A stretch of 64,000 nucleotides of DNA from Lophium mytilinum (lineage: Eukaryota), in the NCBI GenBank assembly GCA_010093605.1, contig MU004183.1:62001-126000 (forward strand), written 5' to 3'. Below the pieces are notes generated by a model. The model was not told the DNA's origin. It ran no database searches and saw only the letters and a program-made list of their open reading frames with translations. The translations under genes and the position numbers were made by a program. Positions 4,690 to 40,505 of this stretch are shown here, in pieces. The first letter of the stretch is position 1. Each line of letters starts with the position of its first letter.

Positions 4690-6632
4690 ATGTTTTCTTC
4701 GAACACCTTCAACATCTATACCAGGCCTAGCGCTCCCAACACTACCACGCAGGATACCCCTCTGATATCGCCTACCACTCCCATCAACCGGCCGCGAACC
4801 TCCAGAAAGCGTAAGGCGGAACCTTCTAGTAGTACCAACGCCAACGATCGCACTCCACTCAAAAATCTCGATGGGAACCGACCTTCGAAAAAGCTCAAGC
4901 CCTCCAACTCCAGCGAGAACGAAGCGGACACCACTGCGGAAGAGGTCATGGAAGATGTTCGCCCATCAGCGAAGCATCCTAAAGGTACCTTGGTGCAGCG
5001 TCTTAACGCACGAACTCGGAGGAAGACCGTCCCAAATGGGACTCCAAATACCATTGCTACTTCCAGTGACAGTAAGTCTAGCCCCCATATCCCAGCACAA
5101 GGCATCTCAACTAAACTTCAATAGACGCAACCAACCAAGTCTCAGATGCAACCGATCCATCAGCGATAATCTTTACCTTCAAGCGCGGGAAAAAGTTCCT
5201 GCTGCCGGGGTCGAACGGAGGACCGAAGGGGTACAGTAGCTGGGACAAGAAAACCAATGCGAAGGGGCTTCAGGTCGCTATCGAGAAGCGCGGATTCTTG
5301 GACAGGTTTTTGGGAGGCCGAAACCCGAATCAGATATCGAAGAGAGAAATGATTAATGCTCTCTTGGCCTGGGACATGGACACACTCACTTCCGAGCTGA
5401 AGGTGGAGCTTGAGTCCCGTGGGTATACCTTCTAGGGCTGCGTGAGCCCCGACGAAGTGATCGAGCTGTACCGGAAGGTCGAACATCACATGGAAAAGTG
5501 GGGGGTCAATTACTCTCCTGCACTCTCCCGATTTGACTTCCAGGCCGCGGACGAAAAGTATCGTGCCATGGACTACTTCAAGCTGCTTGATCACGTGGAA
5601 AAGATGTGGGACTACGCGCTGCAGCATTTTCCGGGAAGGGAAATGTTGATTAGGCGCGCAATCACCGACAAATGGGCCGAGTTAATCCCCGACGCCAACC
5701 CTGCCAAAGCTTGGTTCTTGTCAGATCACCCAGCCAGAAAGGCGCCTGTCTTTCCACCTCCTCCCGCAGCGGCATGGCGAGAGCAGTGCACCTTCCGCGC
5801 TTGCTGCCAGGCGTGTGCTCCATTGGAGTCTCTCATGGGAGACGACTTCGAGTTTGGGGACCTTGAGAGTAGCCCTGGGTTCTTTCTTTGCTTTTGGAAA
5901 AGACGGGAAGTTGTGGACTCGGACACACAGATGTCCGACGAGGAAGCCTTGGGTGAGAGCACGGACGATGACAGCGAAGAAGAATCCGAGGACGATGGAG
6001 CAGCTGCCACGACCAACATCCGCCCAAAAGAGCAATCCACCAGGCACCCCCACAACCTCCCCAAAGATGATTACGCAGTGGATTTCGACGTCGAGGCCAC
6101 TGCGGCAAAGTACCGCAAGATGCAGCTCCAGGAGCTCCTTGACCACGTCTCCAAGAAGTGGGCAAGCGCTACCAGCTTGTGGCACGATCGAGACTGGTTG
6201 GTCAGCCGAGCGGTCACGGATGAATTTGCGGCATTGATACCCACCTACGACCCAATCAGGGATTTCTTTTTCCCTGATTCTTCCTATGGCGAGACCGAAG
6301 AAGACCCAATGATTCCGCTAGCACCATGGCGCCATATTTTAGAGATCCAGGGCGCCGACGGCATATGTGAAAGGTGTGCAGCGCTGCATACCTTCGCAGA
6401 CGCAAACGAGCTGGGAGCAATTCTCTCAGTCCCGGTCCATTGCAAGGAGTTCATTGTTCTCGCAACGAAGGAACTGCTCGAGACAAACCGGCGAAACAGG
6501 GAGGCCCAACGTCTCGAGGGGGAGTTCAGTAGAAGGGCTATTCTGTCTGAGACGTCCAAAGATGAGTCTTCTGAGGATGAGGACTACTCTGACGACTTGT
6601 TTGAGGACGAGGAGGAAGAAGAGGAGCTGTAA
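4690..6632 (+). CDS. Orphan family-1 gene A (NLS-rich N-terminus, SAP/HeH-like core, two CxxC-containing repeats, acidic tail), interrupted by one in-frame TAG
   Basis: Exon 4690-5071, intron 5072-5124 (GTAAGT...CTAAAC...TAG), exon 5125-6632. The spliced frame gives LPGSNGGPKGYSSW...IEKRGFLD...ALLAWDMDTLTSELKVELESRGYTF*GCVSPDEV. TAG at 5433-5435 is in frame with ORF 5442-6632. May be a recent pseudogene. Confidence 0.8.
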
Positions 6633-6871
6633 CATAGCTACAGCTAGTTTGCCTGATCATTTGTATATGGGATGGTTGTTTCTGCGTAGCATTTGCAAGC
6701 GTTTATGTTTTTCTGTTCTTTTGCTTGGCATAGCAGCGTGGGCCTTCTTCTCCTACGCTAACTTAGTAGAATACTGCAACTTATTAATTTCTGTACTCTT
6801 CCTCATTCTATAGCCTATATCCCATCAAAGCTCTACGCTTCATCTTCGGCGTCCGTAGCTTCCTGTGTACA

Positions 6872-8322
6872 ATGCCTTCGCCAACCGGATCCTCCAGTGA
6901 TCTCGCCAGCTCCGCCCGCCTCAGTTTTAAAAAAGTCATCACCTCGACCCCGATTAAATTACCACATAAGACTGTGGCTCCGCGTATGAGTGCGCCTCTC
7001 TCCAATATCTTCAAGAAACGTGGGGCAGATGATAGTTGGTAACATTACGAGTACCAGCGACCTTTCAAGAAGCCAAGAGCTCTTTATGTTAGAGCTATGC
7101 CAATCTCCCTGAGACGTCAACAAGATATTGCGAGAGGCACCAAGATTGCTGAAGCTAACGCAATGGATACTTCCGGAGAATCCGGCGCAGATGAAAATAG
7201 TGTGGATAGCCACATGAATGGTCAGTGTATGCTCAAAGTTTTACCACTGGGACATCTAGCTAATCTCTTCATAGAACCATTCACCACGGCTAAAATGGCA
7301 GTTCAGCGAGAACGACCCACCCATCCTCCCGTGCTTTCCGCAATTTCAAACCCACTCCACGTCTCATTCAAGCATGGTTAATCGTTCTGTCTGCCGGGAA
7401 AACTGGTGACCTGGAGAGAGCCACAACGTGGAAGAAGGATCACAAGAAGCAAGTCCTCAAGCTGGAGATCCAAAAGCGTGGCTTCTGGGACGAGGTGTGA
7501 GGGAGAAGTCTATTCCCACAGTGAACGAGTTGGCGGATTCACTGGCGGCTTGGGAGCTCGACGTGCTTCGTGGGGAAATGATAGCTGAGCTCACATCTCG
7601 TGGCTTCACCAAAACCCTACGCGGTGATATCCTACAGATGGACCCCACTACCTCTCTCATTTCAACTTCGAGAAATGCGCCGAACATTACCGAAAGATGG
7701 GGGAAATCTAAATTTCGATACCACGTCGAAGTGAAATGGGGCAACTCGGCCAAGTTATTCGAGAGCAAGTCCTTGCTCCTCAGCCGCGCGGTCACGGACG
7801 AGTTCGCAGGTCTCAATCCCTCAGAAAACCCAGGTCGATGTTTCTTCGTTTATGGCTTCCTCCCAGAATGAGATATCCCACAAATCGCATCATTCATACT
7901 GCGGCGCCGAAGTTGATTGCACAACGTGTCGCGCTGCCGATGTTCTCTTATCCAGCAACGACTTCGAGAACATGTTCGTTTTCCCAGCAAAATGCGATCA
8001 TCTCTTGATGGTCCGCACAAGAGAGCTTGTATATGAGGGTATCATACCATACCTCGAGGCGACCTTGGACGTCGTTGAAGTCGATTATCAACACAACGAC
8101 GTGGGCAAGGGGGGTGACGAGGAGCAATCTGAAAAGGAGACCACGGGTGGAGTCGATTCGAACTCGGAGGACGAGGAGATGTCAGACGAAGAGGACGACG
8201 AAGAGCCTCGAGAGACGTGGTCGCAGCACATTGGGAGGCTTCTCGACGTTAAGGGTGCCAAGAGAGAGGACCGATTGTCCTACTTCACTGACGCCAAGAA
8301 ATGGTACTCGTTGTTCCAGTAG
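6872..8322 (+). pseudogene. Decayed paralog B of gene A
   Basis: ATG 6872, in-frame TAA at 7040 and 7379, intron 7221-7274 in the same phase and position as in A, and at least three frameshifts. Remnants QRPFKKPR..PISL, EIQKRGFWDE, LAAWELDVLRGEMIAELTSRG, LSRAVTDEFAGLNP and CTTCRAA align with A. Confidence 0.85.
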
Positions 8323-9521: not shown

Positions 9522-9527
9522 TATAAA
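9522..9527 (+). promoter_or_regulatory. TATA box of gene C
   Basis: TATAAA followed by a pyrimidine-rich leader, ~180 nt before ATG 9704. Confidence 0.5.
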
Positions 9528-9703: not shown

Positions 9704-11017
9704 ATGGCTTCTTTTCAGTCTCCCTCCTCTTCCATCCCTTCGCCTAAAGTCAAGGCCAACATCGCCATGGCCACTGGCGCCTCTGAAGAGGGTTCTGCGG
9801 ATGCTGTTGGCGAAGAGGGCATCTCTCGATCGGCCACTGTGGTTCCTAAGATCGACTCTACGCCTCAAGAGACCGATCTGCCCCAGCTTAGCACGTACTC
9901 GGCGAAGCGTGACGAAAATAGCGACCAGGACGAAGATCGTCCTCCGACCAAAAAGGCGAAGACAACTAGCAGCAACCCATTCTCTGAGACGGCGAAGTTA
10001 GGAGACGAGGATCTGCCCATGGAGGAGGCCTCTCTGCCGAAGAAGGAGGGCACGTTCGTCCAACAGCTGAACGACATCAAGCGTAAAGCTTCTCAGCGCA
10101 ACTCTGGCAAGAAGAAGGCATCCGACACGGAAGTTATCCCTCGCCCGCCGACCCTAGATGAGGCTTCGGATCAATCCACAGTCGAAGACTTCATGGAAGA
10201 CTTTGACGAGGACTATGCTCCGGAAAAGAAGTCCGCAGTCCGAGCTGCCCCAGCTCCCCGCCAGGCATCAGCTAGGCGCAAGGCGGTTGCAAAGGGTGCA
10301 AATAAAAAGAAGGCTCGTGCTCCCGTCCCCATCATGAGGACACCTCTCGCCATGCCGAAGGAAGAAGGGGGCCCGAAGAAGTTCGTGACGTGGAAAGGCC
10401 TGACCAATGCTAGGCTTGAGGAGGCTATCAAGGCCCGTGACTTCTGGGATGAGTTTATGGACAGCGACGAAGGAGAGACCAAGAAGGCCATGGCGGAGGC
10501 CTTGGTGGAGTGGGACCTGGCAATCTTGAAGGGGGAGATTCGAATGGAGATCGAGGTCAATGGACCCGATTACAAACTACCAGGGCGAGAGGAGACTCTC
10601 GATGAGATGCTAGCCGATCTCCCTGCGAATAAGGTGCCAAAACAGACACTCGATGTCAGCAACCTGCTCGAGGAGTCGGAAGAAGAGAAGGGTGAGCATG
10701 CAGTCGAGGGTGGTGATTTGGAGCAAACATTGCCAACCGAGTCCGGAAATGCCGCCTCAGGTCAGCTTGCAGTCGAGGGTGGTGACTTGGAGCAAATTTT
10801 GCAAACCGAGTCCAGAGAAGCCGCCTCGGGTGAGCTTGCAGGCGAGAGCGGCGAATTAGAGCAGAATGCCCACGCTGAAATCGAAGAATCTGCCTCGGGC
10901 GAGCAAAAGGATGTCCCGGAAGGGGATGACCAATTGGAAGTCTTGACAGAGGATGAACAGATGGAGGTCTCGAATGGGGATGAGCGACTGGAGGTCTTGT
11001 ATGAATGGGAGAAGTAG
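9704..11017 (+). CDS. Orphan family-1 gene C, 437 aa, intronless
   Basis: Open ORF with the family motifs RPPTKKAK, GTFVQQLNDIKRK, SDTEVIPRP and core RTPLAMPKEEGGPK..W..AIKARDFWDE..AEALVEWDLAILKGEI; acidic repeat tail. Confidence 0.85.
   Translation: MASFQSPSSSIPSPKVKANIAMATGASEEGSADAVGEEGISRSATVVPKIDSTPQETDLPQLSTYSAKRDENSDQDEDRPPTKKAKTTSSNPFSETAKLGDEDLPMEEASLPKKEGTFVQQLNDIKRKASQRNSGKKKASDTEVIPRPPTLDEASDQSTVEDFMEDFDEDYAPEKKSAVRAAPAPRQASARRKAVAKGANKKKARAPVPIMRTPLAMPKEEGGPKKFVTWKGLTNARLEEAIKARDFWDEFMDSDEGETKKAMAEALVEWDLAILKGEIRMEIEVNGPDYKLPGREETLDEMLADLPANKVPKQTLDVSNLLEESEEEKGEHAVEGGDLEQTLPTESGNAASGQLAVEGGDLEQILQTESREAASGELAGESGELEQNAHAEIEESASGEQKDVPEGDDQLEVLTEDEQMEVSNGDERLEVLYEWEK
10700..10906 (+). 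repeat. 69-bp (23-aa) coding tandem repeat x3 in gene C
   Basis: Units begin at 10700, 10769 and 10838: AVEGGDLEQTLPTESGNAASGQL / AVEGGDLEQILQTESREAASGEL / AGESGELEQNAHAEIEESASGEQ. Confidence 0.9.
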
Positions 11018-12458: not shown

Positions 12459-12512
12459 AGTTCCCGAGACCAACCCAGTTCCCAAGACCAACCCACATCT
12501 CGAAACCAAACT
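12459..12512 (+). repeat. 18-bp tandem repeat x3 upstream of the likely start of gene D
   Basis: AGTTCCCGAGACCAACCC / AGTTCCCAAGACCAACCC / ACATCTCGAAACCAAACT. Confidence 0.75.
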
Positions 12513-12557
12513 ACCACATCCATCTCTTCATTGTCATCGGTACTGTGCTCATTGCCA

Positions 12558-14459
12558 ATGTCTTCCTCCAATACCTCCGCATCTCCCACCTCTCCTTTCG
12601 CTGCTACATCCAATGCCGGTACCGCCAGACGCAGCGGCGCCGGTCAGCGTCGTACGAGCAGTAGTGGATACAGCGTGGGCTCCAGTGGTGTTCCGCGAAT
12701 GAGCTCATCAGACAACCCGGATACTAGCACCGAGGTGCAGGGTGCATCATCCGATGCTCAAGACAAGAATCGTCCGAATCTAGGTAAACACCAGGTCGAC
12801 GATGACACAGACGAGAACCTCGACCGCCATCCCAAGAAGAAGGCAAAATCAGCTCACACTGGTGGACCAATATCCCTGGGGGACAAGTATGGAGACAAAG
12901 ATGGAGACTCCTCCATGGAGGATGTTGTGCCAGAAAAGAAAGGTGGCAGTTTGTTGCAGCGTCTCAATGCTTCCAAGCGCACTACTGCGAAGTATAGCAA
13001 AAAGGCAGCGAGCGACACTAAAGCCGTTGCTCGTCCAGCCGTCCAACCGAAGAAGGATCTGCCCGTGGAGGAGGATTCAGAAATGGAGTACGTCCCAGAG
13101 AAAGAGGACGAAGATCACGACGCTCCCCATCTCGCAGTACCCGGCCCACCGAGGCAAAAGGCCGCAGCAAAAGGGGCCAACAAGCGCAAGGGTCGTGGCC
13201 CTCGTGGCTACGTGCGGACCCCCTTCGCAATGCCGCGCGAGGATGGAGGCCCAAAGGACGTGTCAACCTGGATGGCCCATTTCCCAAAGGGCAGGCTCAC
13301 CGAAGCTATCAAGTCCCGTGGGTTCTGGGATGAAATCGAAGTCCGTTCCCCAAATCCCACCTGCAAGCAATTGGCGGAGGCCTTGTTGACCTGGGACATC
13401 GCCATGTTGAAAGGCGAGATCCGCGAAGAAATTCTGCTCCACGGCGCAGACCATGTTCATGACGGCCGAAAGGATGAGAAATCCCTTGGTGAAATGCTCT
13501 CGGAACTACCGCCAGACGAAGAGCCAGAGCAAGAAGAAGAAGAAGAAGAACAGGAGCAGGAGGAAGAGAATGAATCGAGCGACGAGCCAATGCCTGAACC
13601 TTTCGAGGGTCCTGACGACGAAGAAGTTGAGCCGCCTATGCCCTCCAGCGAAGCCCAGGTTCAGCGCAATCAAGCATCAGCAACGAACAGAGCAACACGC
13701 TCTCGGCCGATCCCTCGCATGCCCCTGAAGATTTACCCGATGAGGACTGTCGTGAAGCAGGTCAAGACTGTGGTGAACGGTCGCATCTATGAGATCAACA
13801 CGATGAGAAGTGGACATCATGAGGTGAAGACTGTCGCGAACGGTCGTAAGTATACGACGGATTTCCAGAACTGGGAGACTGAACGTATCGTGTGTCCAGA
13901 GGTCTGGATGGCCAACGAGTTCTCCAACTTGATCGCCCTATCAGAGAGAATGGAGAAGAGGAAGGCGGCCGCGAACGCCGGAAAGTCGAAGCAGTCTTCC
14001 CAGCGTAAGCCGCGGGACTGGTCTAAATTCCGTGGTTACCGTTGCATGACTGCACCATGCTGGCTGAAGCTATCGGCCAAGGAACTGCTAGATGCGGCGG
14101 ACAAACGCCTTCACAAGAGCCGTTTGGAGAAACTTTCGCATGAGGAACTTCCATACGTTCTAGCGAAGCAAGAACTCGAGCTCCGGAGGACATTGGCTGA
14201 CAGAAAGCCAACTCCTGATCGCATCAAGAACGTTGAACTCGCGCAGCGAGACTACGACGAGGCGATAGAAGCACGGGAGAAGTCGCAGGCGGATCCGTTA
14301 GGGAGCGTCTATGACTGGCGGCAAGGGATGCCCGCCCCAACGGAAGACTTGAACGAGGGCCTCGAGGATGATATGTTGGCCGCGTTCGGAGCCAACACTG
14401 AACTAGAGCAGAAAGGCAGCCCGGGCCCACTCTTCGAGGATCCTGAAGAGGAGCTATAG
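12558..14459 (+). CDS. Orphan family-1 gene D, ~633 aa, intronless
   Basis: Within ORF 12285-14459. Start placed at GCCAATG 12558 (same context as C and E, downstream of TATTTATA at 12356). Family motifs: RHPKKKAK..PISL, GSLLQRLNASKR, RTPFAMPREDGGPK..AIKSRGFWDE..AEALLTWDIAMLKGEI. Confidence 0.85.
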   Translation: MSSSNTSASPTSPFAATSNAGTARRSGAGQRRTSSSGYSVGSSGVPRMSSSDNPDTSTEVQGASSDAQDKNRPNLGKHQVDDDTDENLDRHPKKKAKSAHTGGPISLGDKYGDKDGDSSMEDVVPEKKGGSLLQRLNASKRTTAKYSKKAASDTKAVARPAVQPKKDLPVEEDSEMEYVPEKEDEDHDAPHLAVPGPPRQKAAAKGANKRKGRGPRGYVRTPFAMPREDGGPKDVSTWMAHFPKGRLTEAIKSRGFWDEIEVRSPNPTCKQLAEALLTWDIAMLKGEIREEILLHGADHVHDGRKDEKSLGEMLSELPPDEEPEQEEEEEEQEQEEENESSDEPMPEPFEGPDDEEVEPPMPSSEAQVQRNQASATNRATRSRPIPRMPLKIYPMRTVVKQVKTVVNGRIYEINTMRSGHHEVKTVANGRKYTTDFQNWETERIVCPEVWMANEFSNLIALSERMEKRKAAANAGKSKQSSQRKPRDWSKFRGYRCMTAPCWLKLSAKELLDAADKRLHKSRLEKLSHEELPYVLAKQELELRRTLADRKPTPDRIKNVELAQRDYDEAIEAREKSQADPLGSVYDWRQGMPAPTEDLNEGLEDDMLAAFGANTELEQKGSPGPLFEDPEEEL

Positions 14460-15820: not shown

Positions 15821-17836
15821 ATGGCTTCTCCGGCATCTTCTTTCACGGAGACTGCTAGCCCAGCTCGTGGCAAGACAGAGAGCACAGTCGGCACGAAGCG
15901 TAAGCTGCAGACTGTAGACAGCGACGGCAACGATGAGGTCACACCGAAGACTGTGGGTGACAAACGGCCAAAGAAGAGGGTCAAGCCAGCGAGCGAAGCC
16001 GTCCAAAGCTCCTTGAACCCAAACGGTACAACAATTCCAATCTCCTTGAAAGACCGGTATAAGGGTGATGTAGCTATGGACGATGCCTCGGATAAGTCGA
16101 ACGGTAGTTTTATCCAACAGATTAATGCCTCGAAACGCAAAGTCGCTGGATCAAAGTCGAATAAGAAGGATGTTCCGGATACGCAGGCTATTCCGCGTCC
16201 ATCTGCTTCCGGTGAAGTTGAAGAGCCATCTGCGCGCGACGAGTGCGACTCTCCGATGAACGACGCCCAGGAGGAAGACGAGGAAGACAAACCTGCCCCC
16301 CAAAAGGCTCGCAAGGCGGCCGCAAGTAGGCCAAAGACCGACGCAACTGGCGCCAGCAAGCGGAAATTAGATTCGAGCAGAACAACCCTAGCACTGCCAG
16401 GCGAGCCGGGAGGCCCAAAAGCAATCAGTGTCTGGAGACAGAAATGGTACGGCACCGGCTGTGAACAAGCGCTCAAAGACCGCAGCGTATGGGATGATTA
16501 CGTAGTCAACTGGAAACGGTTGGGAATAAAAGTGACCACACAAGTGAAGGCTGAGGCCCTCTACTGGCACGATATCAACGCGCTGAAGGAAGAACTCCAG
16601 GACGAGATCGAGGCTCGTGGTCCTGAGTTTCAATTTCGGGAGGGCAAAACTCTGGCGGAGTGCCTTGCCGGGCTTCCTGTGCAGGAAGAGCAGGAAGAGC
16701 AGGATGTAGCGCCACCGACGACTTCGAAGCCCGTGAAGAAAACTACGGCGCGTCCTAAGGCGAAAACACCCCATCCTGACGAACGTGAAGAGGATGGCCC
16801 GGTTGTTGCTCCATCAACCTCTTTCGAGAAACCTGTGAATGAAAAAGTCACCCCTGCACGGGCTGAAAGTAAGGCGCAGAAAGGAACTGGTCTCCCAAGA
16901 GACGCATCATCGGGAAAGGCCGAGAAGAAACTTTGGAAGTCAAAACCCGTCCATAAATGGGTCTCTCTATCCGAAGAAGAGCTGCGCAAAGCAGCTCGCA
17001 AGCGCCGTGTAGATCTTACGCCGCATCCACAAGAGCAGTGGGCATACCTCCTAGCCAAGCACGACCTCCTAGAGGAGGACAAACCGGTCGAAAACTTGCA
17101 AGGCGAGTTTGATCAGGTTAAGCAGGCAAAGCAGGAAGCTCTAAGTGCGGATGACCGAGATCAAGCATCTCCCAACCTTTCTATCCAATCTGACCACGTA
17201 GAGGTCGAGACTGTTTCCCCGGACGTAATCGCCGAGAGGATGCAGCCAAACGTGCCTGTGGAGAAAGAAGTAGATGTGCCGTCCACCCGTCCCGTCCCGT
17301 CAAAACGCCCAGAATTGAAGAAGTCTCCTTCAAAAGTAAAGCGCAAGTCCTCAAGCGGTGTTACCAAAAACACTTCTTCACGAAAGGCGGAGAAGAATAT
17401 AAGAAGGATAAATGCAGAAAGGCTGATGGAGGCGGTAGAGCAAGAGAACGAAGATGACTGCATCACCCAGGCTTTAGAACAGGCGTTGTCTGGCCCCGAA
17501 GAGGAACAAAACCCAAAGAAAGCACTGGCAGAGGCAGAAAGGCAGTTGAAAGAAAGAGAAGAAGCCGAGGGCAAGAAAGAGTGGATGGAAGAGGTCCAGA
17601 AAGCGATTTTCGACGCCTTGAAGAGAGACCTAGAGGCCGGGAAGCCGGTTGAGCCGGTCGAAAAGCTGGGAGATGGCGGTGGGTCCGAGGAGAAGCTGGT
17701 GAGATTGTTCGCCGGAAAGTCTATCCAGTGGTTCATCTCCAGCCACTACGCGAGTCGTGGTATTCAACTTTCATATAACTGCCCATTTGACCCTGACGAT
17801 GGCGATGATCCGGGCTTTTGGTCGGAGGAAGAGTAG
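15821..17836 (+). CDS. Orphan family-1 gene E, ~671 aa, intronless
   Basis: First ATG of ORF 15698-17836. Motifs: KRPKKRVK..PISL, GSFIQQINASKRK, DTQAIPRP, LALPGEPGGPK..W..ALKDRSVWDD..AEALYWHDINALKEEL. Confidence 0.85.
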   Translation: MASPASSFTETASPARGKTESTVGTKRKLQTVDSDGNDEVTPKTVGDKRPKKRVKPASEAVQSSLNPNGTTIPISLKDRYKGDVAMDDASDKSNGSFIQQINASKRKVAGSKSNKKDVPDTQAIPRPSASGEVEEPSARDECDSPMNDAQEEDEEDKPAPQKARKAAASRPKTDATGASKRKLDSSRTTLALPGEPGGPKAISVWRQKWYGTGCEQALKDRSVWDDYVVNWKRLGIKVTTQVKAEALYWHDINALKEELQDEIEARGPEFQFREGKTLAECLAGLPVQEEQEEQDVAPPTTSKPVKKTTARPKAKTPHPDEREEDGPVVAPSTSFEKPVNEKVTPARAESKAQKGTGLPRDASSGKAEKKLWKSKPVHKWVSLSEEELRKAARKRRVDLTPHPQEQWAYLLAKHDLLEEDKPVENLQGEFDQVKQAKQEALSADDRDQASPNLSIQSDHVEVETVSPDVIAERMQPNVPVEKEVDVPSTRPVPSKRPELKKSPSKVKRKSSSGVTKNTSSRKAEKNIRRINAERLMEAVEQENEDDCITQALEQALSGPEEEQNPKKALAEAERQLKEREEAEGKKEWMEEVQKAIFDALKRDLEAGKPVEPVEKLGDGGGSEEKLVRLFAGKSIQWFISSHYASRGIQLSYNCPFDPDDGDDPGFWSEEE

Positions 17837-21681: not shown

Positions 21682-21818
21682 GGTGGCAGGGTGAAAGATA
21701 TTGGGATAGGGAGCGCGCGACAGGAGCGGCAACGGTAAAGCGAGGGGGAGGCATCCGATGACAGAAAAGGAGCTTACGGCAGTGGATCGGAGAGTCCCTT
21801 GGGCGACGGGGCGGTTCC

Positions 21819-21976
21819 CTGCGAGACCTTGGTCAGCGCGACAGTCATCGAAATCATCGGCTATGTGGCGGAGACGTACCTTTGGTTGTGCGGGGATTCA
21901 TGTCGTTGGTATCGAAGCTGTCGGAATGACAATAGAGCTGCTGCTAAGCAGGGGAAGTGGATTGCTAATTTATATA
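21819..21976 (-). promoter_or_regulatory. TATA box and 5'-UTR intron of gene F
   Basis: TATATAAA on the minus strand at 21976-21969. Canonical intron 21879-21819 (GTACGT...GCTGAC...CAG) between it and the ATG. Confidence 0.55.
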
Positions 21977-28014: not shown

Positions 28015-30111
28015 ATGGATGGCAATCCCGCCGACTCAGAGCAGACGGCATCTGGAATTCCGAGCTATGATGCTTCTACCACCGGCGAATCTCCGCAAGT
28101 GACGAGCGACACCTCAGCGTGCATGTCGAGCGTCAGCTTAAACGATATATCCGATTTCAGTAAAGACATACCACAAGAAGCTCCTACTATTATGGAATTG
28201 ATTCTCCCAAATGGTCGAGATACGACTCTCCGCAAGTCGACAATACCAATTCTTTCATCCCAGCAAGTAGATCCAGAGATCCTAAGGGCTCAGGTCGCCC
28301 ACCTGCAAGGCTTGAATGATTACCAGAAGAAGCAGAACGAGGCTTTAAAGCTCGATCTTACCACGATGGTGAATTGGGGTCTGGTGCAGGAGAACAAGGC
28401 TGAGAGTGCGAAAACGCTAGCCGGGGAACTGGAAATGGACCTTAGAAAGATGGAGGAAGCTAATGACAAGGAGCAAACCAGGGCTAAGGTAGCCGAAAAG
28501 CGGGTTGAGGAATTGGAGGTCGGATTGAAGGTGATGGAGGATGCCAGGAACGAGGCAAATAGCAGAGTGAAGAGAGCTGAAAAGCGGGTTGCGGAGCTAG
28601 TCGTCGAACTCAACATCAGGGAGGGGGCTGAGAATGAGCAAATGGCGGTGAAAGAGGCTTTGGAGCTTGAGAAGATGTCATTGGCTGAGCAGGTATCTAT
28701 GGCGAGGGCACGGATTGAAGATCTGAAGAATGAGATTGCAAGAGCGAGAGAAACTCACAACGAAGAAAAAGAAAAGATGAATGACTCTCAAGACGAAGGG
28801 ATCCAGATCTTGCTCTGGAAATTTCGTGAGCGATTAGGCTACCTCGAAGAAGAAACTGAAACAGGAACTGAGAGGCCGGATACATTGCAAGAGTGGGACA
28901 GTATGAGATCCATGCTAAACAGCTTCAAGGACGAACATTCGAAACAAATCCAGCAGATCTTTAGGCTACTCAGTCATGGCAAGTGTGAAAAGCTTCGCGA
29001 GAAAGAGAAGACATCCAGGCTTAAGAGAGACTTTGGAAATGCGAACTTGGAGAACAGTAATATCAAGAAGGATAACATTAGCCTGGAGAGGGAGCTAAAC
29101 AGTGTGAAGAGAATTAAGGAAAGGCTGGAGGCCGAGTCCTCTCGTCAAAATGAGCCGTTTATAAAGAAGGAAGTCGATCATTGGCCACCTGAGAAATTTC
29201 GGTCTCCAGAGGATCCTACAACGGACTCACACAGGCCCAAACGTCTGAAGCATATCTTTCACGATACAAGCGAGCAATCATTGTCTCGAGGTTACTCTAA
29301 CCCTCTATCCCGCCCAAATTTCCATGCAATATTTTCGTCGGAGCGCTCGGGTTCTAAGACAGTATCGACAGTTGGAAGTCCGATTTCGACGCACAATATA
29401 ATGTGCGGCGTCTGCCTCGAGATCCATCCTGCGAAGGGTTGGCTGACTGGCTGCCTCCACGTGATATGTTGGTCATGTTTCCTAGAAATGGAGTTCACGT
29501 CAAGCTTCAAGAGTGAAGGAACGACGAGCTGCTACTGTGGACATCCTATCACGTATACGATGACACTCGAATCCTGCCTTGCAGACAGCGAGCCTCCGAA
29601 ATTCTCCAGCTCATTCAGCTCGAAGTTATCAGAATATAAAACACTCCAACCCGAGGATACAAGTGTGTTTTCGGGAAAAGTCTTTTACAGCCTACGAACT
29701 CGCCAGGCTACCATTGCATTTTCCGCTCGTAGCTCAAAGAGCGAGATTGATGACCTCGAGCCTGAAGTAACACAATGGGTGGCCCGATCTCTGAGAGAGT
29801 GGTTTTCGATCCCGAGACCTCAATTTTGGGTCGAATATCAGAAGAGAAATGGAACTTGCTTGCACTGTCAGATCCACAACCAATACTGTTTCCTACTGAA
29901 TCCTGGAAAAAACGAGGCGTGTGTGCCCTGCTCAAAAAAAGGCGTTCCGTGCCTGGCCATCAAGAAGTCCGTTTGGGGCCCTCTCATACAGCTCCTGCCT
30001 CTAGCGGACACCTACCGCAAAGGTCGCCTATGGAAATCAATCGTATCTTGGAAGGATCCAGAGAAAGTTCAGAAAGCGGAATGGGAAAGGGAATGGGAAA
30101 ATCAATTGTAG
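28015..30111 (+). CDS. Orphan family-2 gene H: long coiled coil + C3HC4-type RING + C-terminal Zn2Cys6-like motif, 698 aa, intronless
   Basis: E/K-rich heptads with a 28-aa repeat. RING CGVC..WLTGCLHVICWSC..CYC (29404-29538). C-x2-C-x6-C-x10-C-x2-C-x6-C at 29857-29952. Confidence 0.85.
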   Translation: MDGNPADSEQTASGIPSYDASTTGESPQVTSDTSACMSSVSLNDISDFSKDIPQEAPTIMELILPNGRDTTLRKSTIPILSSQQVDPEILRAQVAHLQGLNDYQKKQNEALKLDLTTMVNWGLVQENKAESAKTLAGELEMDLRKMEEANDKEQTRAKVAEKRVEELEVGLKVMEDARNEANSRVKRAEKRVAELVVELNIREGAENEQMAVKEALELEKMSLAEQVSMARARIEDLKNEIARARETHNEEKEKMNDSQDEGIQILLWKFRERLGYLEEETETGTERPDTLQEWDSMRSMLNSFKDEHSKQIQQIFRLLSHGKCEKLREKEKTSRLKRDFGNANLENSNIKKDNISLERELNSVKRIKERLEAESSRQNEPFIKKEVDHWPPEKFRSPEDPTTDSHRPKRLKHIFHDTSEQSLSRGYSNPLSRPNFHAIFSSERSGSKTVSTVGSPISTHNIMCGVCLEIHPAKGWLTGCLHVICWSCFLEMEFTSSFKSEGTTSCYCGHPITYTMTLESCLADSEPPKFSSSFSSKLSEYKTLQPEDTSVFSGKVFYSLRTRQATIAFSARSSKSEIDDLEPEVTQWVARSLREWFSIPRPQFWVEYQKRNGTCLHCQIHNQYCFLLNPGKNEACVPCSKKGVPCLAIKKSVWGPLIQLLPLADTYRKGRLWKSIVSWKDPEKVQKAEWEREWENQL

Positions 30112-32345: not shown

Positions 32346-32394
32346 ATCCCGCGCCATGTCACTACCGTTGACGATAGGCCATGTACGGAAACCT

Positions 32395-33450
32395 CTATAG
32401 GTGAGGTGGCTCACTCATCCGATCATACTCACGGATGGCTGTTCTCGGGCGCTTGTGCGGTCTGTTCGACCCAGAGTCTTTCCGATAAACAGCATCTTCG
32501 ATAGCCCATAACCTTGCTTTCAGTCCTTCTTTCTCGAACCACGTTGAATTAGCCTTAATCTTCAAGCGGGCCACCTCCGCGTCTTTCTCTTCGTCCTTCA
32601 ATTCGATATGTTCAGATTTTGCCTTCAGGCTGTCCATCTTCGCCCAAAGGGAGCAAATGAACTGGTCAATCTCTTTCTCCTTTGACATAAGTTCTTTCTC
32701 CTTTGACTTAAGTTCTTGACATATCACGCGCTCCCGATGTTCATACCCTTTCAGCTCGTGGTTTCTGTTTTCCTTGTCATATTCCAAGCCTGTGATAACA
32801 TCCTTCGCCCTCTGCAGCTCGTCGACTTGACGAGAACACTCCGATCTGAGAGCCTGGGCCTCTTCTATCAAATGCCGATTCGACTTCACCAACTCCGCGT
32901 TCTCCTTTTTTTCCTGCGCGACGACCTTTCGGATAGTCTCATTCTCTTTCTCCTTAGCTTCAACCCTCTTCAAGAGCTCTTCTTCTAGCTCTCGAACCTG
33001 TATCAGAGAAGCTGCCACTTCCTTGGCCCGTTGTTCTCGCATATCCGCGACTTCCTACTCCAGACCAGCGCATGTCTCTGCTAGCTTGGTTTTCTCATCT
33101 TCCAGGTAGGTGTTCTTAGCGTTCGATGATTGTACGAGGCTGCTCGATGATTGTACGAGACTGTAGAGAGACGCGTTTTCGTTCTTTAGAGACGCGTTTT
33201 CGTTCTTTTCAACCATCAAGCGAGTCTCCAGAGATGATATGCGCGCTCTCAGAGACAATTCGGTCGGTGTTTCCATCGAGTCAGTGGCATGGCTGTTAAT
33301 AGTGGGGACACCATCATGGCCAGTGGTGACATGCACCGCGGTATCCACGCTAGTCGACTGGGGCTCTGGCATTGCTTGAGATTCTAGGGTCACTGTAGAT
33401 TGCGGAGTTTGGATCGGCGTATCGCCCGAGATATCTAGCTCACCCTCCAT
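32395..33450 (-). CDS. Orphan family-2 gene I: coiled coil + RPHKRPR NLS, interrupted by one in-frame TAG
   Basis: ORFs 33055-33573 and 32395-33042 are in the same frame, separated only by GAG TAG GAA GTC GCG GAT (TAG 33057-33055). ATG at 33450. Heptad pattern is continuous across the stop. May be a recent pseudogene. Confidence 0.7.
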
Positions 33451-35463
33451 AGTTAACGCCGTGTGCGAGAGTGTGTGGTAGTTGATCAAGGATGAATGGA
33501 CCGTATATTGGAAGCTGTAGTGACCAAAGACAGAACTGAGGCTGGGGATGGCGAAGTTATGGCAGAGGAGCATTTAGTCGGTTGTTCAGCCTGCTGTAGT
33601 GATTGAACCTCTACGAAAAGCCGTTGGAGTAGATAGTGCTACGGAACAAGAAGCTGTAAGCCGTTTACGTGATGGATTATATAATGATGAGGTAAGATAG
33701 GGAGCGGTCTGAGGGGAGGTAAGCCTTGTGATGCTGTATGGCGAATTTCAGTAGTGTCGGAGAATGCTCCCGTGAGCCTACGCGTCAAATTCCAACTCTG
33801 CTGCTGCCATAGTATCGACTACATCAGTCCAGAGTCCAGAAGTTCTCTAGTAGCGCGTGAAGAATCACCTATGATTTCAGAGCTTTACGGTCGCGATTCG
33901 AGGCTTCGCTCTAAAACATATGTGCTGAGTTCAAGACCGAGGGTACTCATCAAAACCTCCACCGCAATACCAGCATGTCCTGTGATATAATCAGAAACGG
34001 TTCGGTCCGACTTTATGAAAGCCCCTGTAGCTGTATAGGCTACCTCAGACCGGTATCGGACTGCTAGCATATGCTCAATGAGACATCAATGCATCCTTCC
34101 TGGAGAAGATGAAGTTTCCGTCTTACTCTACTCTGTCACCTCACAAATCAGGACTCACAGACGGGAGGACTCTTCGAGTACAGGTCGTTGCACGTTTGTT
34201 GATATGCTAAGATGTTAGAGAGCAAGTAAGATCTGCGAAGAGGCGCAGCACGTTGTCGGCGGCGAATGGCAAACTGCTAAACAATCTAGAGCTACTCACA
34301 TCATTCCGCACAGCATCAGCGAAAACACACCGAAAATCTTTTCAGCGAAAGGAGCGGTCTTTATTGCCATCCAATGTTCGATCACAACAGTCCCTGCATG
34401 CTCAAGTAGTTCGAGCAGTGATTAGATGACGCGAGGTTTGCTATTGTCCCTGCGTCGAAAGCCGACCAAGATCTTGATCATAAAATTACAAACCTTGATG
34501 CAATATCGAGAGATAAAAGTTTACAAATGCAACTACCGCCAGGCCGGCAAGAAGCCATCTTTGATTTACTTTCTGTCTACAAATCTTTAGACAGATGCAA
34601 CCTGCGGTCAAGAGCTAGGAACATGACATGTAAAAGTGGTCTCAGGAAAGTGTGGGCAACTCCGCACAAGTGCCTAAGAGCGTTCTTTTGCTCTCGCTTG
34701 CGAATCGTATTGGCATGTGACCAGCTCGCCCTCCTGCGGCGGCGACGAAGGCAAGGCGGTATTCCTTGGCTTGGTACATTTCAGGGTGGGCCCTGTAATC
34801 ATGTTAGTGACACCGGTTTTGAGTCCACAAGGGACTCTCAGTCGTACAACCCTAAAGTAGAATATCATGGAAATATTTATACCTTGCGAATTGGCCATAC
34901 GGTTTGGCGGTATACTCAAACCTTCGATAGTTTCCTGAGAACGTGACTTTGAGTCAGTGAGCGATGTGACTATACGGAGCTCTCAAACCAAATCTTAATA
35001 GGTAACGATAAATAGATATCCTCGAGAGTATGCTAGACATTTACCTTACTTAACTTACAGCATGTAAAGAAGCATGAAGCCCGAATTGAACGTATAAAAA
35101 GCAGCGTCGGTAAGAGGTTGAGTTATCACAAGGCTCGACTGAGGAATTTGCACAGATTGCTGTTGTGTGGATACGGAAACCACAATAGCTCTCTCCGCCA
35201 GAAGTTTGACTTCTTAGGCTATTTTTTGACTATGAAAGTATTTTCCAAACTTAGGGAATATGAAATGGGGTAGCTGGTGGCTGAGGGTGTAAAACAAAGG
35301 AAAGATGGGAGAAATTCAAAAGATACTGAGTGCTGGTTCGCCAGACGAAAAGAATGAAAAGCACGACATGAGAGCCTGGAGCCATGGTGCATCTAATTTT
35401 TGGTGGGTTTCTCCCCTACTGCTGATGTTTTAGAATGATATTTCCGATGCACCAGCGTCTTTA

Positions 35464-36891
35464 CTACTCCCATAGGTCATCGTTCCTCACGGCAGCTGCG
35501 CGAACATCCTCCAAACTTCGGGTGATCCACATGCCAATATCGTTAGGATCTGTAGTGGCCGTCTCCCGAAGTTCCTTTCTCAGTGGCAAGATGGTCAGTT
35601 CTGTCTTGTCTCCCGTCGAGGAAGGTTTTCTGCTAAGCACCACGCACAGCACCTTCTTCCTCGAGCAACTACGGCAGGCCTGTCTTCCTGGCGAGTCTTT
35701 GGGCCATTGTGAGTCATAAACCGTGGCGCGTGAGATGAGATGAAGGCATTTCGAAGTGATCTTTGGATCTTCGATTGGTAATACTCCGTCGCTATGAAAG
35801 AACGGTATAAAAACTGCCAGTTTCTCTCGCAAACAGTGTGGGAACTCCGAGCCAACCAATCTGGCATTCCCGTGCAGCGCAATGAAATCGAAGTTGGAAT
35901 AGCTCTTCTGTAATTTTTCAAAAGGTGTTTGAGTCGCTGAAGGCAGCGAAAAATTTGCGGGCGGAGAGGAGACGGCAGCGCTCTGACTGCCGCCATAGTC
36001 TATCCTTGGACGCTTGGCCGGTCTTTCAGATACGTCCATGTTGACAGCATCCTTGATTGAAGATAGCGTTGTCTTTAGAGCGTTCGTCTCTTGCTGGGCC
36101 AATGCGAGCTGAGCCCTGAGGCTGCGGATCTCTTCTTGGTCCTTCGCTTTGAGAGCTGTGAGATTCTTTTCCAGAGATGTTGCCATATCTTTGTGCTGGT
36201 TGAACAGAATCCCTAGTTCGTAGAGACTCTTCGCATTCTCATCTATGCGCCCTTGCAGCTTTTCGATCTCTGCCCCCTTGGCCCTCTTCATCTCCTCGAA
36301 CTCTTTATCCTTGCTTCTCTTCAAGACGATCATTTTCATGTCACCTTCTTCCTTTTGCTGATTTAATAAGCGCTTGAAACTTCTGATCTCTTTCTCTCCG
36401 CTCGCAAGCGTACCCTTGACGGTAGAAAGCGCCTCTTCAGTCTTGAGACCTTGATCATGCCGAACTCGAAGTTGCTCCTTTAAACTGTCAATTTCCGCGA
36501 GCAGGCGCCGCCGCTGCTCCTGATCCGACGTCGTCTCGCTACCTTTCTTTGTCTCCGGATCGACATTTCCCCTGCTCTTCTCCATCATTTGCTTCTCCCA
36601 TGCCTCTAGTGCCTCTAGCCTTCTCTCCACCGTAGCCAAGCGATCTTCACTTCCCGTATCCCCCATTTTCACTTGATCGACGACGGCTGCAGTACTCTTC
36701 CCCTCCTTGGCATGCTGCGCAGGATCTTCTTTCTTTCTGCTTTTTGCTCTAGTAAACTTGCCATCCAACCAATCATCTGCAAATCTCTTTGCTGCCAAAA
36801 GATGCTCGTCATGGAGAACGCAATCCGCGGCATGATGAGACCAAGATTCGCCGTCCCAAACACAGTCTCTGTGATGCGCCGGCGGAGCCAT
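35464..36891 (-). CDS. Orphan family-2 gene J: coiled coil + RPAKRPR NLS + degenerate Cys module shared with H, 475 aa
   Basis: Intronless ORF. C-terminus KCLH...PGRQACRSCSRKKVLC...TILPLRKELR...IGMW parallels H's TCLH...PGKNEACVPCSKKGVPC...QLLPLADTYR...IVSW. Confidence 0.85.
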   Translation of the reverse strand: MAPPAHHRDCVWDGESWSHHAADCVLHDEHLLAAKRFADDWLDGKFTRAKSRKKEDPAQHAKEGKSTAAVVDQVKMGDTGSEDRLATVERRLEALEAWEKQMMEKSRGNVDPETKKGSETTSDQEQRRRLLAEIDSLKEQLRVRHDQGLKTEEALSTVKGTLASGEKEIRSFKRLLNQQKEEGDMKMIVLKRSKDKEFEEMKRAKGAEIEKLQGRIDENAKSLYELGILFNQHKDMATSLEKNLTALKAKDQEEIRSLRAQLALAQQETNALKTTLSSIKDAVNMDVSERPAKRPRIDYGGSQSAAVSSPPANFSLPSATQTPFEKLQKSYSNFDFIALHGNARLVGSEFPHCLREKLAVFIPFFHSDGVLPIEDPKITSKCLHLISRATVYDSQWPKDSPGRQACRSCSRKKVLCVVLSRKPSSTGDKTELTILPLRKELRETATTDPNDIGMWITRSLEDVRAAAVRNDDLWE

Positions 36892-38390
36892 TGTTTTCGG
36901 ATAGATCTTGTTCTAGCCCAGTGCCATGAAACGGCCCGACTCGATTGGGGGGTGATCAGACCAGTGATCGAAGGCAGTGAGGAGTCGAGATCAAACGGTA
37001 TGCGCGTTAGATATCAGCATGCGGTAGGTATTAGAGAGTTTGGATATAATGACGGTGAGGCAGCAGACCACCCAGCGGGCCACGAATGGGAGGTAAGAGA
37101 GTAGCTACAGTGCGGAGGTGGAGGGTTAGAAAGGTAGGTGTTGAGCTGTGGAAAGGTGGGAGTTAAGGTTTGGAAAGGCGGTGGCAGATAAGATGTAGGA
37201 CCTCACTTGAAGTTACCAGAGTGCGTCTACTTTCTTCCCGTTTTCATCATCATACTGCTAAAAGGTAAGCCCGCTAGGCTACCCCAGATGGCAGCAGATA
37301 AGTGTACACGGATATCGGAAGCACATGATTGCCGATTTAGTTCGCGCTCTCGCGACTATGGCATCCTATCTATGTTCTTGGTGATATTTTGAGGTACTAC
37401 AACCTGTGCCTACATAGCCCAATTCAATAGTTTTGAAACCTTGCCGACTCATAGACTAGAGGGCGCAACATAGTATAGTGGTACATAGTGGTATGCTGAG
37501 GCAACTCAGGCAATGGAACAATTGGATCATTCATGGCTCACTCAGTCATGGTCTTGAGTATTTGAAATCTCATGCGCAGTTCAAATAATAGGCTGATGGC
37601 TCTAAGACTGTGCAAGCATAGAGGACCAAATCAGTTGTTGGTGGGAGCTTTTTATTGATATAGGAGAGTGGAAGAGATGGCAAGAAAGAGTATGCACCTA
37701 AATATTGGGAAGGGTGAAGGCAAGATCAAAATTCAAAACGCTTTGATCAATTGTGAAGGTGGAAAGGGACGGAAAGGAAGGAGGAAGGGTTGAAAAGAAG
37801 ATCGCCTGCCTTTCCGTGTTATGGGCTTGTATGTGGGTGGTATTGGGGAGCAAAGAGATGAAAACAATGCAGATGGTGGGCATGGTAAGTCGTGATAAAG
37901 TCGCCAGAACTCTCTGGGCTACTTTGCTAAGCATATCTTTCAGGGAATTTTAGTCGTCAGGTTTTAAAGAAACCCCTGTTTAGATCCTGTTCTAATCATC
38001 TTTAAGCCCGGGGGTCATGCTTGGTTGACAAGTAGCGTCTGCCAGTTAAGTATTGTGTAATCTGAGGAGTTTCTTCCAGACTTCCAGGTTCTAATCATCT
38101 TGTACGGCAGTCGCAAAAGTAGCATGACATCTTTCGGCACTGAAAGAAGTAGACATAGATAGCCCTCCTTCTCGCATGCCTACCCAGCTTCGTGGGTACT
38201 ATGCGGAGTAAGTGTCTCAGAATTTAGCTCGATTCGAGTGTGCAACGTCCGCCTATATGCTCAAACACTCGTCCGCCCAGAGCTCAATATCTTGCCCGAT
38301 ATTAGAAAAATGCACATTAGACCGCGTGTTGGCCAGTGGGTTTGGATTAAGGGCATCGGATAGCCGTCAGTGTCGGAATGATGTGGCCTA

Positions 38391-40505
38391 TTAGGGTGCG
38401 TACGGAACACTGAATGAATACATGAAGCCACAAGAACAGCATGCTGCACTCTCTCTGCCAGTAGTGGACGCTTCAAGCTGGAGATCTTCCAGACAGCCTT
38501 GGCAGTAGAAATGACGGCAAGCTGTCATCCACGGATCGATGGCAGTTTTGTGGCATTTGACGCATTTGGTTTCCTCGTCATCCGACATCTCATCATTCAT
38601 ACCCAAACGTTGACGCTTACGGGGTCTGTCAACATCGAGGATGCCATCTGTACGAACAGCGTTGTTGGCCGTATCGAGTCCCTGCTGGACATCTCGAAGC
38701 TCGGAAGTCAGTCGTGCAATCTCATCGTCCTTCTCTGTGCCCGATCGCTCCAGCTCCTGTATCCGACTCTCAAGGCCCTTATTCGTCCCGAGCCACTCGC
38801 TCCGATTCTTCCGCGCAATTTCTTTAAGCTGCTTCACTTCGGCGTCTCCAATCCTTTTCGCCCTCGCAAAGCCTTCTTCTTCCCGCTTCCCTGCCTCTTT
38901 GAGCATAAAGTCCTTACTAGCTTCTAACTGCTGGACTTGTTCTTCATGTGACATCTTGATTTCGTCGATCTCGCCCTTCAGCTTCCCTTCGCCATCCTTC
39001 AACGTAGCAACCATGTCGTCTTTAATCTGCATCTCCGCCCTGTGAATTCCCCGCTCTTTTTCCAGTCGCGTTTCAAGAGCTCGATATGTGTCCAGTTGGC
39101 TTCGGATCTTCTTTTCGCTACTCTGGGCCGAAGCGTCCCAGTCGCGCTTCAAGCTCTGGATCTCTGCCTTCGCAGTAACAAGCTCCTCTTGGGTCCGAAC
39201 TCTATCCTCGTCCCAAATTCCTTGCTGCTCCTCCAATACCGCGATGTTGCGGTCTTGTGCCTGCTCCAGGCGAGCGAAGTCGTCGTTCGTCTTCTCAATC
39301 TGCGCCTTCGCAGCAGCAAGATCCTCCTCAAGTCTATTCTTCTCCTCCAGCCAGGTTACCTCTTTCTTCTTAACTTCTTGAAGCTCACGTTGGTCGCGGT
39401 AGGCTTGAAGCCTCTCAGATCCTTTCGCGGCATCTCCGAGGTCCTCCTCAACGGCTGCCATGAACTTCAAAGCCATGTTGTGGTGACCGTCCATCGCTTG
39501 GAGTCGATCTTCTAAGGCTTGAAGCCTTATTCCAATATCAGATGTGTTCTCCCCAGCGTAGGAGATACCCTTTTTTGACTGAGCAGGTTCAAGAGAGGTC
39601 GTTGAAAGGGTCGCTAAAGACACAGAAGTGGTATCTTCATCGTTAGGCGGAGATGTTTCGGCATCCATCATATCGTGATCTATATTATGAGCTTGTATCG
39701 TCCGGGAAGTAAGCGCTGAATCGCTGGTAGCCGGTCGAATTGTTGAAGATGCAGTAGCCACGGCTCCATCATTTGCCGGGAACGATGTAGCATTCGCCAT
39801 GTCGTGATCCACTTCGGAAACCTGGGCAGCCTGGTGAGATGGGATTGGATTGCTGGTAGCCGCTCTGGAACTGAAAATTTCCATAATAGGTGGCTTGTCC
39901 CGTCCAAGTGGGTTGAAGTCTCGGTCATCCATTTGGGAGGAGTCAGACAGCTTGCTAGCAGATCTATCGCGGCGTACGCTAAGTATGCTTGCACCTAGAT
40001 CAAGAGCACCAACATGTCTAGCTTGGCGGGGTAGCCCTAGGCGTGCGGTGTTGGTTTCGCCCTGCGTTCCATCATCATTTTCCACACGCTGCCGAGCCTT
40101 GTGCTCTCTCAGGCGAGTATGCTCTTTTGTCTGCGCCTTCATCCACGCGATGTCTTCACTCAACGACAGGTCCCGACGTTTTTTGATCTCCGCGATCCTG
40201 TCCGTTTCAAGTAGGAATCTAAAGAGTTCATTAGTTGGTTCCGATGGAGACATTTCATTGGGGAACACGACTCACTTTTGACGTGCCAATTCATCTTCAG
40301 CGTCCACGCTGAGAGGGTGCGTAGCTACGACCGCATCAAATGTGCTTTGGGGAAGGGCTGTCTTCGCTGCTTTGTTCGAACCCTTTCCTTCGGTCTTAGC
40401 GTTCGGCTTCTTAAGCTTCGATTTCGCCTTGAGGGTAGCTGGAGTCCGATGCTTTAGCTGCTTCCGCTCGTTGCTCGTCAACAATGGGGCCGGGTAGTCC
40501 TCCAT
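38391..40505 (-). CDS. Orphan family-2 gene K: low-complexity N-terminus, long coiled coil, RPRKRQR NLS, C-terminal C3HC4 RING
   Basis: Exons 40505-40276 and 40218-38391 joined by a 57-nt intron (GTGAGT...ACTAAT...TAG). RING CVKC..WMTACRHFYCQGC..CCSC at 38564-38430. Confidence 0.85.

Follow-up and report, generated by a model that had tools for sequence, protein, structure and literature searches.

Two putative tandem gene families of apparently restricted distribution around ARL1 in Lophium mytilinum

Layout of the island

The DNA analysed here, which we call the window, is a stretch of 64,000 nucleotides from the wood-inhabiting fungus Lophium mytilinum (NCBI GenBank assembly GCA_010093605.1, contig MU004183.1, positions 62,001 to 126,000 of the forward strand), and our subject is an island of genes within it that runs from the ATG of gene A at position 4690 to the ATG of gene K at position 40505. 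The island comprises eleven units bearing open reading frames (ORFs), which we named A to K, in two arrays with the gene of the Arf-like GTPase ARL1 between them (Table 1). A first-pass annotation, made by a model from the sequence alone, had described eleven genes or pseudogenes here, and both their number and their placement held. The composition of the window is that of fungal nuclear DNA (about 44-59% G+C). Its NUP159 ORF is 100% identical to a Lophium mytilinum database protein, and the nearest named relative is Mytilinidion resinicola.

No recognised family had been assigned to the island genes, and in agreement with this, zero island proteins reached the Pfam gathering score. At E ≤ 0.01, ten of the 14 ORFs scanned (13 from the island and one ARL1 exon) lacked any Pfam family; the remaining island ORFs gave sub-threshold matches, to coiled coils in the ORFs I1 and I2 and to RINGs in K. 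When seven sub-regions were scanned at a relaxed threshold, the only additions were Rho_N at the N-terminus of F (E = 0.15) and zf-RING_5 in H (E = 4e-4). Introns are indeed few, with one in A, one in K (supported by RNA) and three in F (two of them supported by RNA), while the other units are single ORFs.

Basic motifs resembling a nuclear localisation signal (NLS) had been reported nearly throughout the island, and by a strict definition they were present in 10 of 10 island proteins tested, compared with one of six controls from the flanks. The position of the motif is kept within each family, as 'RPxKKAK' in A, C, D and E and as 'RPxKRxR' in I, J and K. Judged by the consensus for such signals, these motifs are probably nuclear localisation signals. 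The expected in-frame tandem duplications were also recovered, in C, H and I by TRF, and a protein-level tiled test revealed older internal repeats in A, F, H and K. Three units are disrupted, as had been proposed: A and I each by a TAG codon, and B by at least two frameshifts. The wide intergenic spacing ascribed to the island was confirmed only in part, since the gaps within it measure 567-2283 bp and the contrast with the flanks, where gaps of 143-2421 bp were estimated from ORFs alone, is modest.

We rejected a transposon or Starship-type origin of the island: none of 76 intergenic ORFs of at least 70 aa matched Pfam, RIP indices were ordinary, and no long DNA repeats joining island genes were found. 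The window also contains no tRNA genes or Rfam families.

Table 1. Genes of the island and its flanks in window coordinates, with orthologs in a relative (for K, M. resinicola) and protein identities to them.
Feature	Position	Strand	Group and length	Structure and motifs	Ortholog	Identity, whole	Identity, core
A	4690..6632	+	family 1	exon 1 4690-5071; intron 5072-5124; in-frame TAG 5433-5435	P0006	~66% (over 205 residues)	65%
B	7416..8322	+	pseudogene, paralog of A	pieces in two frames; shifts near 7515 and 7850			
C	9704..11017	+	family 1, 437 aa	single ORF	P0003	62%	89%
D	12558..14459	+	family 1, 633 aa	identical to database protein P0001			
E	15821..17836	+	family 1, 671 aa	single ORF	P0004	60%	81%
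F	18964..21901	-	singleton, 885 aa	exons 21901-21880, 21818-21778, 21609-21483, 21431-18964			
ARL1	23400..24200 (approximate bounds)	+	Arf-like GTPase, between the two arrays	four introns			
G	25343..26506	+	family 2	coiled coil; 'SRKRR' motif; no zinc module			
H	28015..30111	+	family 2 (putative), 698 aa	coiled coil; 'RPKRLK'; RING-like cluster C464..C508; C-terminal cluster C615..C646			
I	32395..33573	-	family 2 (putative)	single frame broken by TAG 33055-33057; coiled coil; 'RPHKRPR'			
J	35464..36891	-	family 2 (putative), 475 aa	coiled coil; 'RPAKRPR'; C-terminal half Cys cluster resembling H			
K	38391..40505	-	family 2, 686 aa	intron 40219-40275 (RNA joint); coiled coil; 'RPRKRQR'; C-terminal C3HC4 RING	P0002 (sole named homolog)	55%	
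O-methyltransferase	609-1769		flank gene				
CAB1 (Fumble), NUP159, MBOAT protein, Sel1-repeat protein			ordinary flank genes				

Family 1: paralogy of genes A to E

The predicted proteins of C, D and E matched one another in BLASTP (C/D 4e-45, C/E 1e-24, D/E 2e-26), and tblastn located the core that they share at 5196-5432 in A and in two different frames of B, at 7423-7518 and 7515-7625. These alignments make a firm case that A to E are one paralogous family, family 1. The first-pass annotation had grouped A to F in a single array of one family, which stands for A to E (BLASTP 1e-24 to 4e-45) but not for F.

In gene A, the annotated product P0005 uses the same intron and stops at the in-frame TAG, a position at which the ortholog in the relative has Glu. 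Beyond the TAG, a frame of 398 codons is still open (5436-6632) and encodes a duplicated module of about 60 residues (internal repeat E = 2.5e-13) that is found in B too. An ATG follows the TAG at 5490; the nonsense mutation may be very recent, or the downstream part may be used alone. In B, a third tblastn piece lies at 7722-7850, the ortholog P0006 aligned with 7416-7841 at E = 7.6e-10, and three-frame translation shows the upstream part to be riddled with stops. Gene C ends in two in-frame tandem repeats near its 3' end (69 bp in 2.5 copies and 27 bp in 3 copies). Upstream of the annotated start of D (M at 12558) there is an 18-bp tandem repeat at 12458-12509, which is probably leader rather than coding sequence. 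The C-termini of A (~6600-6632), D (14430-14459) and E (17800-17836) read '..LFEDEEEEEEL', '..LFEDPEEEL' and '..GFWSEEE', possibly a shared short linear motif.

A confidently modelled core without a fold match

The full-length model of E is mostly disordered: its mean pLDDT is 50, 422 of the 671 residues score below 50, and order is confined to a core (residues ~190-290) and a helical hairpin (~520-605). Modelled alone, the core of about 100 residues reached a pLDDT of 82.8 and a pTM of 0.73; in it, three short helices are followed by one of 27 residues, a small hairpin and a final helix. Its flanks in the family contain acidic tails, a basic motif ('RPxKKAK') and a short helix that is conserved ('GSFxQQLNAxKRK').

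Neither sequence nor structure searches found a relative of this core. The exhaustive VIA search against solved folds gave a best Z of 4.8, with no chain at Z ≥ 5, Foldseek against the PDB returned 0 matches at E ≤ 0.001, and the core profile returned 0 matches among PDB sequences at E ≤ 10. Pfam gave 0 families for the core and the second motif at E ≤ 1, and 0 for the whole proteins at E ≤ 0.01. A fold search with full-length E matched the helical hairpin only (best Z 6.4) and is uninformative.

The first-pass annotation had read a SAP/HeH fold, of the kind that binds DNA or chromatin, into family 1, and this assignment was not borne out by the searches above; the remaining hints are all sub-threshold. 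The Rho N-terminal domain stood at rank 21 in the VIA search with Z 3.7, and the Atlas neighbours of the C core labelled HeH, SAP and Rho_N scored 0.76-0.82 with TM < 0.5, which makes them leads only. Compared with the SAP (PF02037), HeH (PF12949), Rho_N (PF07498) and LEM-like motifs, the likeness consists of two core helices with a similar residue pattern, these weak Atlas and VIA neighbours, and the N-terminus of F, which reads as SAP-like. The family-1 core differs by a further helix inserted between the pair of motif helices and by the long 27-residue helix; no match is significant, and no SAP or HeH structure came near the top of its fold rankings. A SAP/HeH identity of the core is thus possible but unproven.

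Gene F

All three introns of F lie at its 5' end. An RNA contig shows two of them as CT..AC joints, at 21431/21483 and at 21608/21777, and the first intron was predicted from GTACGT..CAG. The protein has an N-terminal SAP-like motif, internal repeats, several basic clusters and a K/R-rich tail. The Rho_N match at its N-terminus scored 12.5 bits against a cut-off of 24.9, and the Atlas search with F gave nothing usable. We rejected F as a member of family 1, as it has no BLAST match there and the hhalign comparison of the family-1 profile with the F N-terminus gave E = 0.2 over 16 columns.

Family 2: members and kinship

The second array, G to K, had been proposed as one family as well. This is clear for G and K, which are firm paralogs (BLASTP 1e-11), but less so for the others. 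H matched K at 6e-5 in the RING only, and H and J share a Cys-containing C-terminal stretch at E = 0.001 in a single pairwise comparison. Against a G/K profile searched over 641 six-frame ORFs, I was the best non-seed match with a marginal domain E of 0.029, and neither J nor H was recovered.

Read from their sequences, G to K share a layout of a disordered N-terminus, coiled-coil-like heptads, a motif of the 'RPxKRxR' type and a variable C-terminus. In a crude screen, each of the five proteins G to K showed heptad segments of 29-162 residues, and C and D showed none; among six controls, the screen also flagged the NUP159 C-terminus and another coiled-coil ORF. G and I end shortly past the basic motif, and a three-frame reading of 30300-32500 showed no zinc-module remnant downstream of I. 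Gene I contains three 21-bp in-frame duplications.

Just downstream of I, a 135-bp tandem repeat of 2.2-2.4 copies occupies 32005-32344 without apparent coding sense, and an inverted 62-nt copy of it, 74% complementary, lies 631 nt away at 31487-31548.

Zinc modules of K, H and J

The RING consensus is C-X2-C-X(9-39)-C-X(1-3)-H-X(2-3)-C-X2-C-X(4-48)-C-X2-C. The C-terminus of K agrees with it as C564-X2-C567-X11-C579-X-H581-X2-C584-X2-C587-X17-C605-X2-C608 (numbering of the 620-aa ORF; C606 is also Cys), and phmmer against the PDB aligned it with the RINGs of TRIM34 (3.2e-5), TRAF5 (5.8e-4) and RNF113A (1.1e-3). The C3HC4 RING that had been predicted in the second array is therefore present in K, by its spacing and by the TRIM34 match.

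H carries a RING-like cluster, C464-X2-C467-X12-C480-X-H482-X2-C485-X2-C488-X17-C506-X-C508, in which the last pair is C-X-C, not C-X2-C, and the best PDB match was COP1 at E = 0.2. At its C-terminus, a second cluster, CX2CX6CX10CX2CX6C (C615, C618, C625, C636, C639 and C646), follows the spacing of the Zn2Cys6 consensus CX2CX6CX5-12CX2CX6-8C. This cluster aligned with the Leu3 DNA-binding domain at E = 0.69, which is not significant, and Pfam gave no Zn_clus match there at E ≤ 1. J retains only the second half of the H-type Cys cluster.

These modules can be compared with several known systems. The closest solved RINGs to that of K belong to TRIM proteins, and K also has a long coiled-coil-like region; its domain order is reversed, however, with the RING after the coiled coil, and Pfam finds no B-box, so that K departs from the RBCC (RING, B-box, coiled coil) arrangement. 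In Bre1 the RING lies at the C-terminus after a coiled coil, and K is similar in having its RING at the extreme C-terminus behind a coiled coil; the comparison is one of domain order and not of Bre1 sequence, and Pfam gives no BRE1 family for K or H. From coiled-coil RING E3 ubiquitin ligases in general, K differs in that its Pfam RING score is below the cut-off, its sole homolog was found in the sister genus, and its paralogs in the island have no RING or have other Cys clusters in its place. H resembles the Zn2Cys6 proteins Gal4 and Leu3 in exact spacing and in the Leu3 alignment at that very spot, but its cluster is C-terminal in a coiled-coil RING-like protein and not N-terminal in a transcription factor.

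Distribution and rate of divergence

We searched a HMMER profile of the family-1 core against 1.84 billion representative proteins at E ≤ 0.001, and five proteins matched: D, the annotated A, and the best matches of C, E and A in the relative. Because the library is clustered at 50% identity, C and E of the window are represented by their orthologs. As no further paralog emerged, family 1 seems limited to this locus and the corresponding one in a relative, and K likewise has one named homolog; the lineage restriction suggested by the first reading is upheld. For none of the island families was a relative detected beyond the species and its sister genus. The part of the literature on Lophium mytilinum and Mytilinidion resinicola that was consulted holds nothing on these genes, and the protein motifs themselves were not searched in it.

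In a tree of the cores, A, C and E each paired with their own ortholog (support 100/99 for A and 98/95 for E), which makes the duplications older than the divergence from the relative. D has a long branch close to C; a word-indexed search returned D alone, and the core profile search likewise found no ortholog of it. With old duplications of A, C and E, one member without a found ortholog and disruptions in A, B and I, the locus fits the birth-and-death pattern that had been proposed.

The neighbouring NUP159 provides a baseline for divergence: its C-terminal 409 residues are 89% identical to the M. resinicola ortholog P0008, and with Glonium and Lepidopterella, the next relatives, this C-terminal part shares about 50% identity. 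Whole island proteins are only 55-66% identical between the genera, so the claim that they evolve fast is supported at that level, but it does not extend to the family-1 core of C and E, which is kept at 89% and 81%, with 65% in A. Since whole proteins diverge while the cores remain at 65-89%, change has occurred mainly in the disordered flanks, and for C and E the core seems to be under constraint. At this pace of divergence, homologs outside the order would go unnoticed, so that 'young' and 'old but unrecognisable' genes are indistinguishable here.

It is thus conceivable that the island proteins are old, widely conserved nuclear genes which have drifted past recognition, family 1 from SAP/HeH chromatin proteins and K from a coiled-coil RING ligase of the Bre1 or Rad18 kind. 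The HeH-clan hints in F and in the core agree with this idea, and at such a rate homologs past the sister genus would go undetected. On the other hand, the HMMER profile found only the proteins of this locus and their orthologs, the core has a confident model and still no fold match (best Z 4.8; 0 from Foldseek at E ≤ 0.001), Pfam gave no BRE1, SAP or HeH family, and it would be uncommon for a housekeeping gene to have five tandem paralogs. On balance we regard this explanation as unlikely.

Transcription of the island

RNA contigs were compared over one 20-kb stretch, with A to E outside it, and such contigs cannot rank expression. In one sequencing run, the contigs were identical to the window and spliced at ARL1, F and K, and the run is therefore RNA of this organism. 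The spliced contigs of F and K answer the doubt, raised at the outset, that none of the genes might be transcribed. A low-depth RNA contig covers 26034-26476 in G and another lies at the start of H; I, J and most of H had no RNA contigs in the compared stretch, which has no bearing on their expression. Of the words sampled from 15800-25799, where E, F and ARL1 lie, the RNA run also contained 48%.

The RNA contig that spans K (37942-40505) measures 8577 nt and continues for over 6 kb beyond 40505, across neighbouring genes; overlapping transcripts or the merging of contigs may account for this, and the contig is not proof of one transcript.

These data bear on the explanation that the island is mostly decaying or non-functional, with F, K and ARL1 as the sole real genes and the long ORFs as evolutionary remnants or noise of annotation. 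In its favour, three of the eleven units are disrupted, the proteins are mostly predicted to be disordered, and G and H have low-depth RNA contigs only. It sits poorly, however, with the intact ORFs of C, D and E (437-671 codons), with the presence of 48% of the sampled words from the stretch that includes E and F, and with cores of C and E that are 89% and 81% identical across genera while their flanks diverge, a mark of purifying selection on the domain. We therefore consider general decay quite improbable.

Interpretation of the locus

We interpret the island as two taxonomically restricted tandem families plus the singleton F, encoding largely disordered and probably nuclear proteins with NLS-like motifs, and assign this reading a probability of roughly 0.6. 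It draws on the observed paralogy, the restricted distribution, the disruptions, the transcription recorded for part of the units and the domain model. In such a scheme, the family-1 domain would be a module brought into the nucleus to bind chromatin, nucleic acid or protein, and K would be a nuclear RING E3 ligase dimerised by its coiled coil. The RING-less family-2 paralogs might act as partners or regulators through the coiled coil, or they may be decaying copies. The arrays would have arisen from old local duplications and would turn over by nonsense and frameshift mutations, with divergence concentrated in disordered regions; a coupling of the two families need not be assumed.

Several points weigh against this reading. 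Nuclear location, E3 activity and binding are inferred. The Pfam zf-RING_5 matches of K (E = 2.7e-4, 21.3 bits) and H (20.7 bits) fall short of the cut-off of 27.9. In the M. resinicola ortholog of K, the corresponding region (residues ~547-579) shows Ser in place of the third RING ligand, and the loop ahead of the final Cys pair is about 12 residues shorter; both features cast doubt on the conservation of ligase activity. Membership in family 2 is weakly backed for I (domain E = 0.029), J and those parts of H that lie outside the zinc modules, and kinship can be mimicked by common coiled-coil composition. The nonsense codons of A and I were read from the assembled sequence. Only one sister genus was available for comparison, and the searched databases may miss other Mytilinidiales genomes. 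The restriction may also reflect divergence beyond detection and not youth, as homologs at the distance of the next relatives, where NUP159 is down to about 50%, would be unrecognisable.

Between K and P0002, the zinc module itself is changing from one genus to the other. As for the TAG of I, a DNA contig of a possible source sample spans this gene.

The first-pass annotation had gone further and proposed one co-evolving system in which the E3 or zinc proteins of family 2 act on or with chromatin binders of family 1, in genetic conflict, genome defence or the sexual stage. The two arrays do adjoin, both show turnover by pseudogenes and in-frame duplications, and the whole proteins outpace the neighbouring NUP159 in divergence. 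TRIM genes form fast-evolving tandem arrays in vertebrates, and the nearest solved RINGs to that of K are from TRIM proteins. Moreover, the M. resinicola orthologs of K and NUP159 are each on a 666,694-bp contig, which is consistent with linkage, at least for K. No result contradicts a coupling, but adjacency and turnover are all that supports it, with no result tying the families functionally; the family-1 core is well kept (81-89% in E and C), unlike an arms-race interface, and the island has neither transposon relics nor a RIP signature. We consider such a coupled system very doubtful. Co-folding of K 430-620 with E 83-292 scored 0.00 against a mark of 0.34, with alignments unused, and counts neither way.

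Slimmer still are the prospects of the boldest version, a self-contained nuclear system private to the Mytilinidiales in which dimeric coiled-coil zinc proteins would recognise family-1 proteins and either ubiquitinate them or tether them to DNA, these family-1 proteins having a new chromatin- or nucleic-acid-binding fold. K would then be an active E3, H a DNA binder with a RING and a Zn2Cys6-like cluster, and G, I and J RING-less modulators, and the turnover and flank divergence would mark an intragenomic conflict, for example at meiosis or with a nuclear parasite.

Returning to our preferred reading of two restricted families, a close precedent is the orphan cluster of filamentous fungi, with which the island shares tandem paralogs that are mostly disordered, lack Pfam families, occur in close relatives only and are intermixed with pseudogenes. 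The island differs in its folded domain, kept at 81-89% between genera in C and E, and in the conserved position of its basic motifs, and we saw no secretion-type or transposon features in it. If the reading is right, the locus would add a confidently folding helical domain of about 100 residues without sequence or structural relatives, and an unusual group of coiled-coil proteins whose C-terminal zinc modules are exchanged (RING, Zn2Cys6-like spacing or none) within one tandem array. The locus also illustrates one reason why such genes look orphan, namely a folded core that is 81-89% kept while the divergence of the disordered flanks is about four times as fast as that of a nucleoporin next to them. 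The value of the locus is moderate until a function is shown, because it opens no long-standing question for testing and filamentous fungi commonly have tandem families of restricted taxonomic range.

Neighbouring genes and further observations

The flanking genes are ordinary, and CAB1 (Fumble) and NUP159 were confirmed among them, as first annotated. Outside the island, a 525-aa ORF at 55199-56776 on the plus strand has tandem S/P-rich repeats and coiled-coil-like segments and no Pfam family; we rejected it as a member of family 2, as its hhalign comparison with the K/G alignment gave E = 0.57.

The identification of the gene between the two arrays as ARL1 was verified. The exon tested (64-135 residues) matched Pfam Arf at E = 3.8e-19, the nearest solved chains were yeast and other ARL1 (5.9e-25), ahead of ARF1 (2.7e-17), and RNA contigs show its four introns to be GT..AG. 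On either side of ARL1, outside the modelled ORFs, further RNA contigs with a depth of about 12 cover 22584-23042 and 24481-24865, and these may be untranslated regions or unannotated transcripts.

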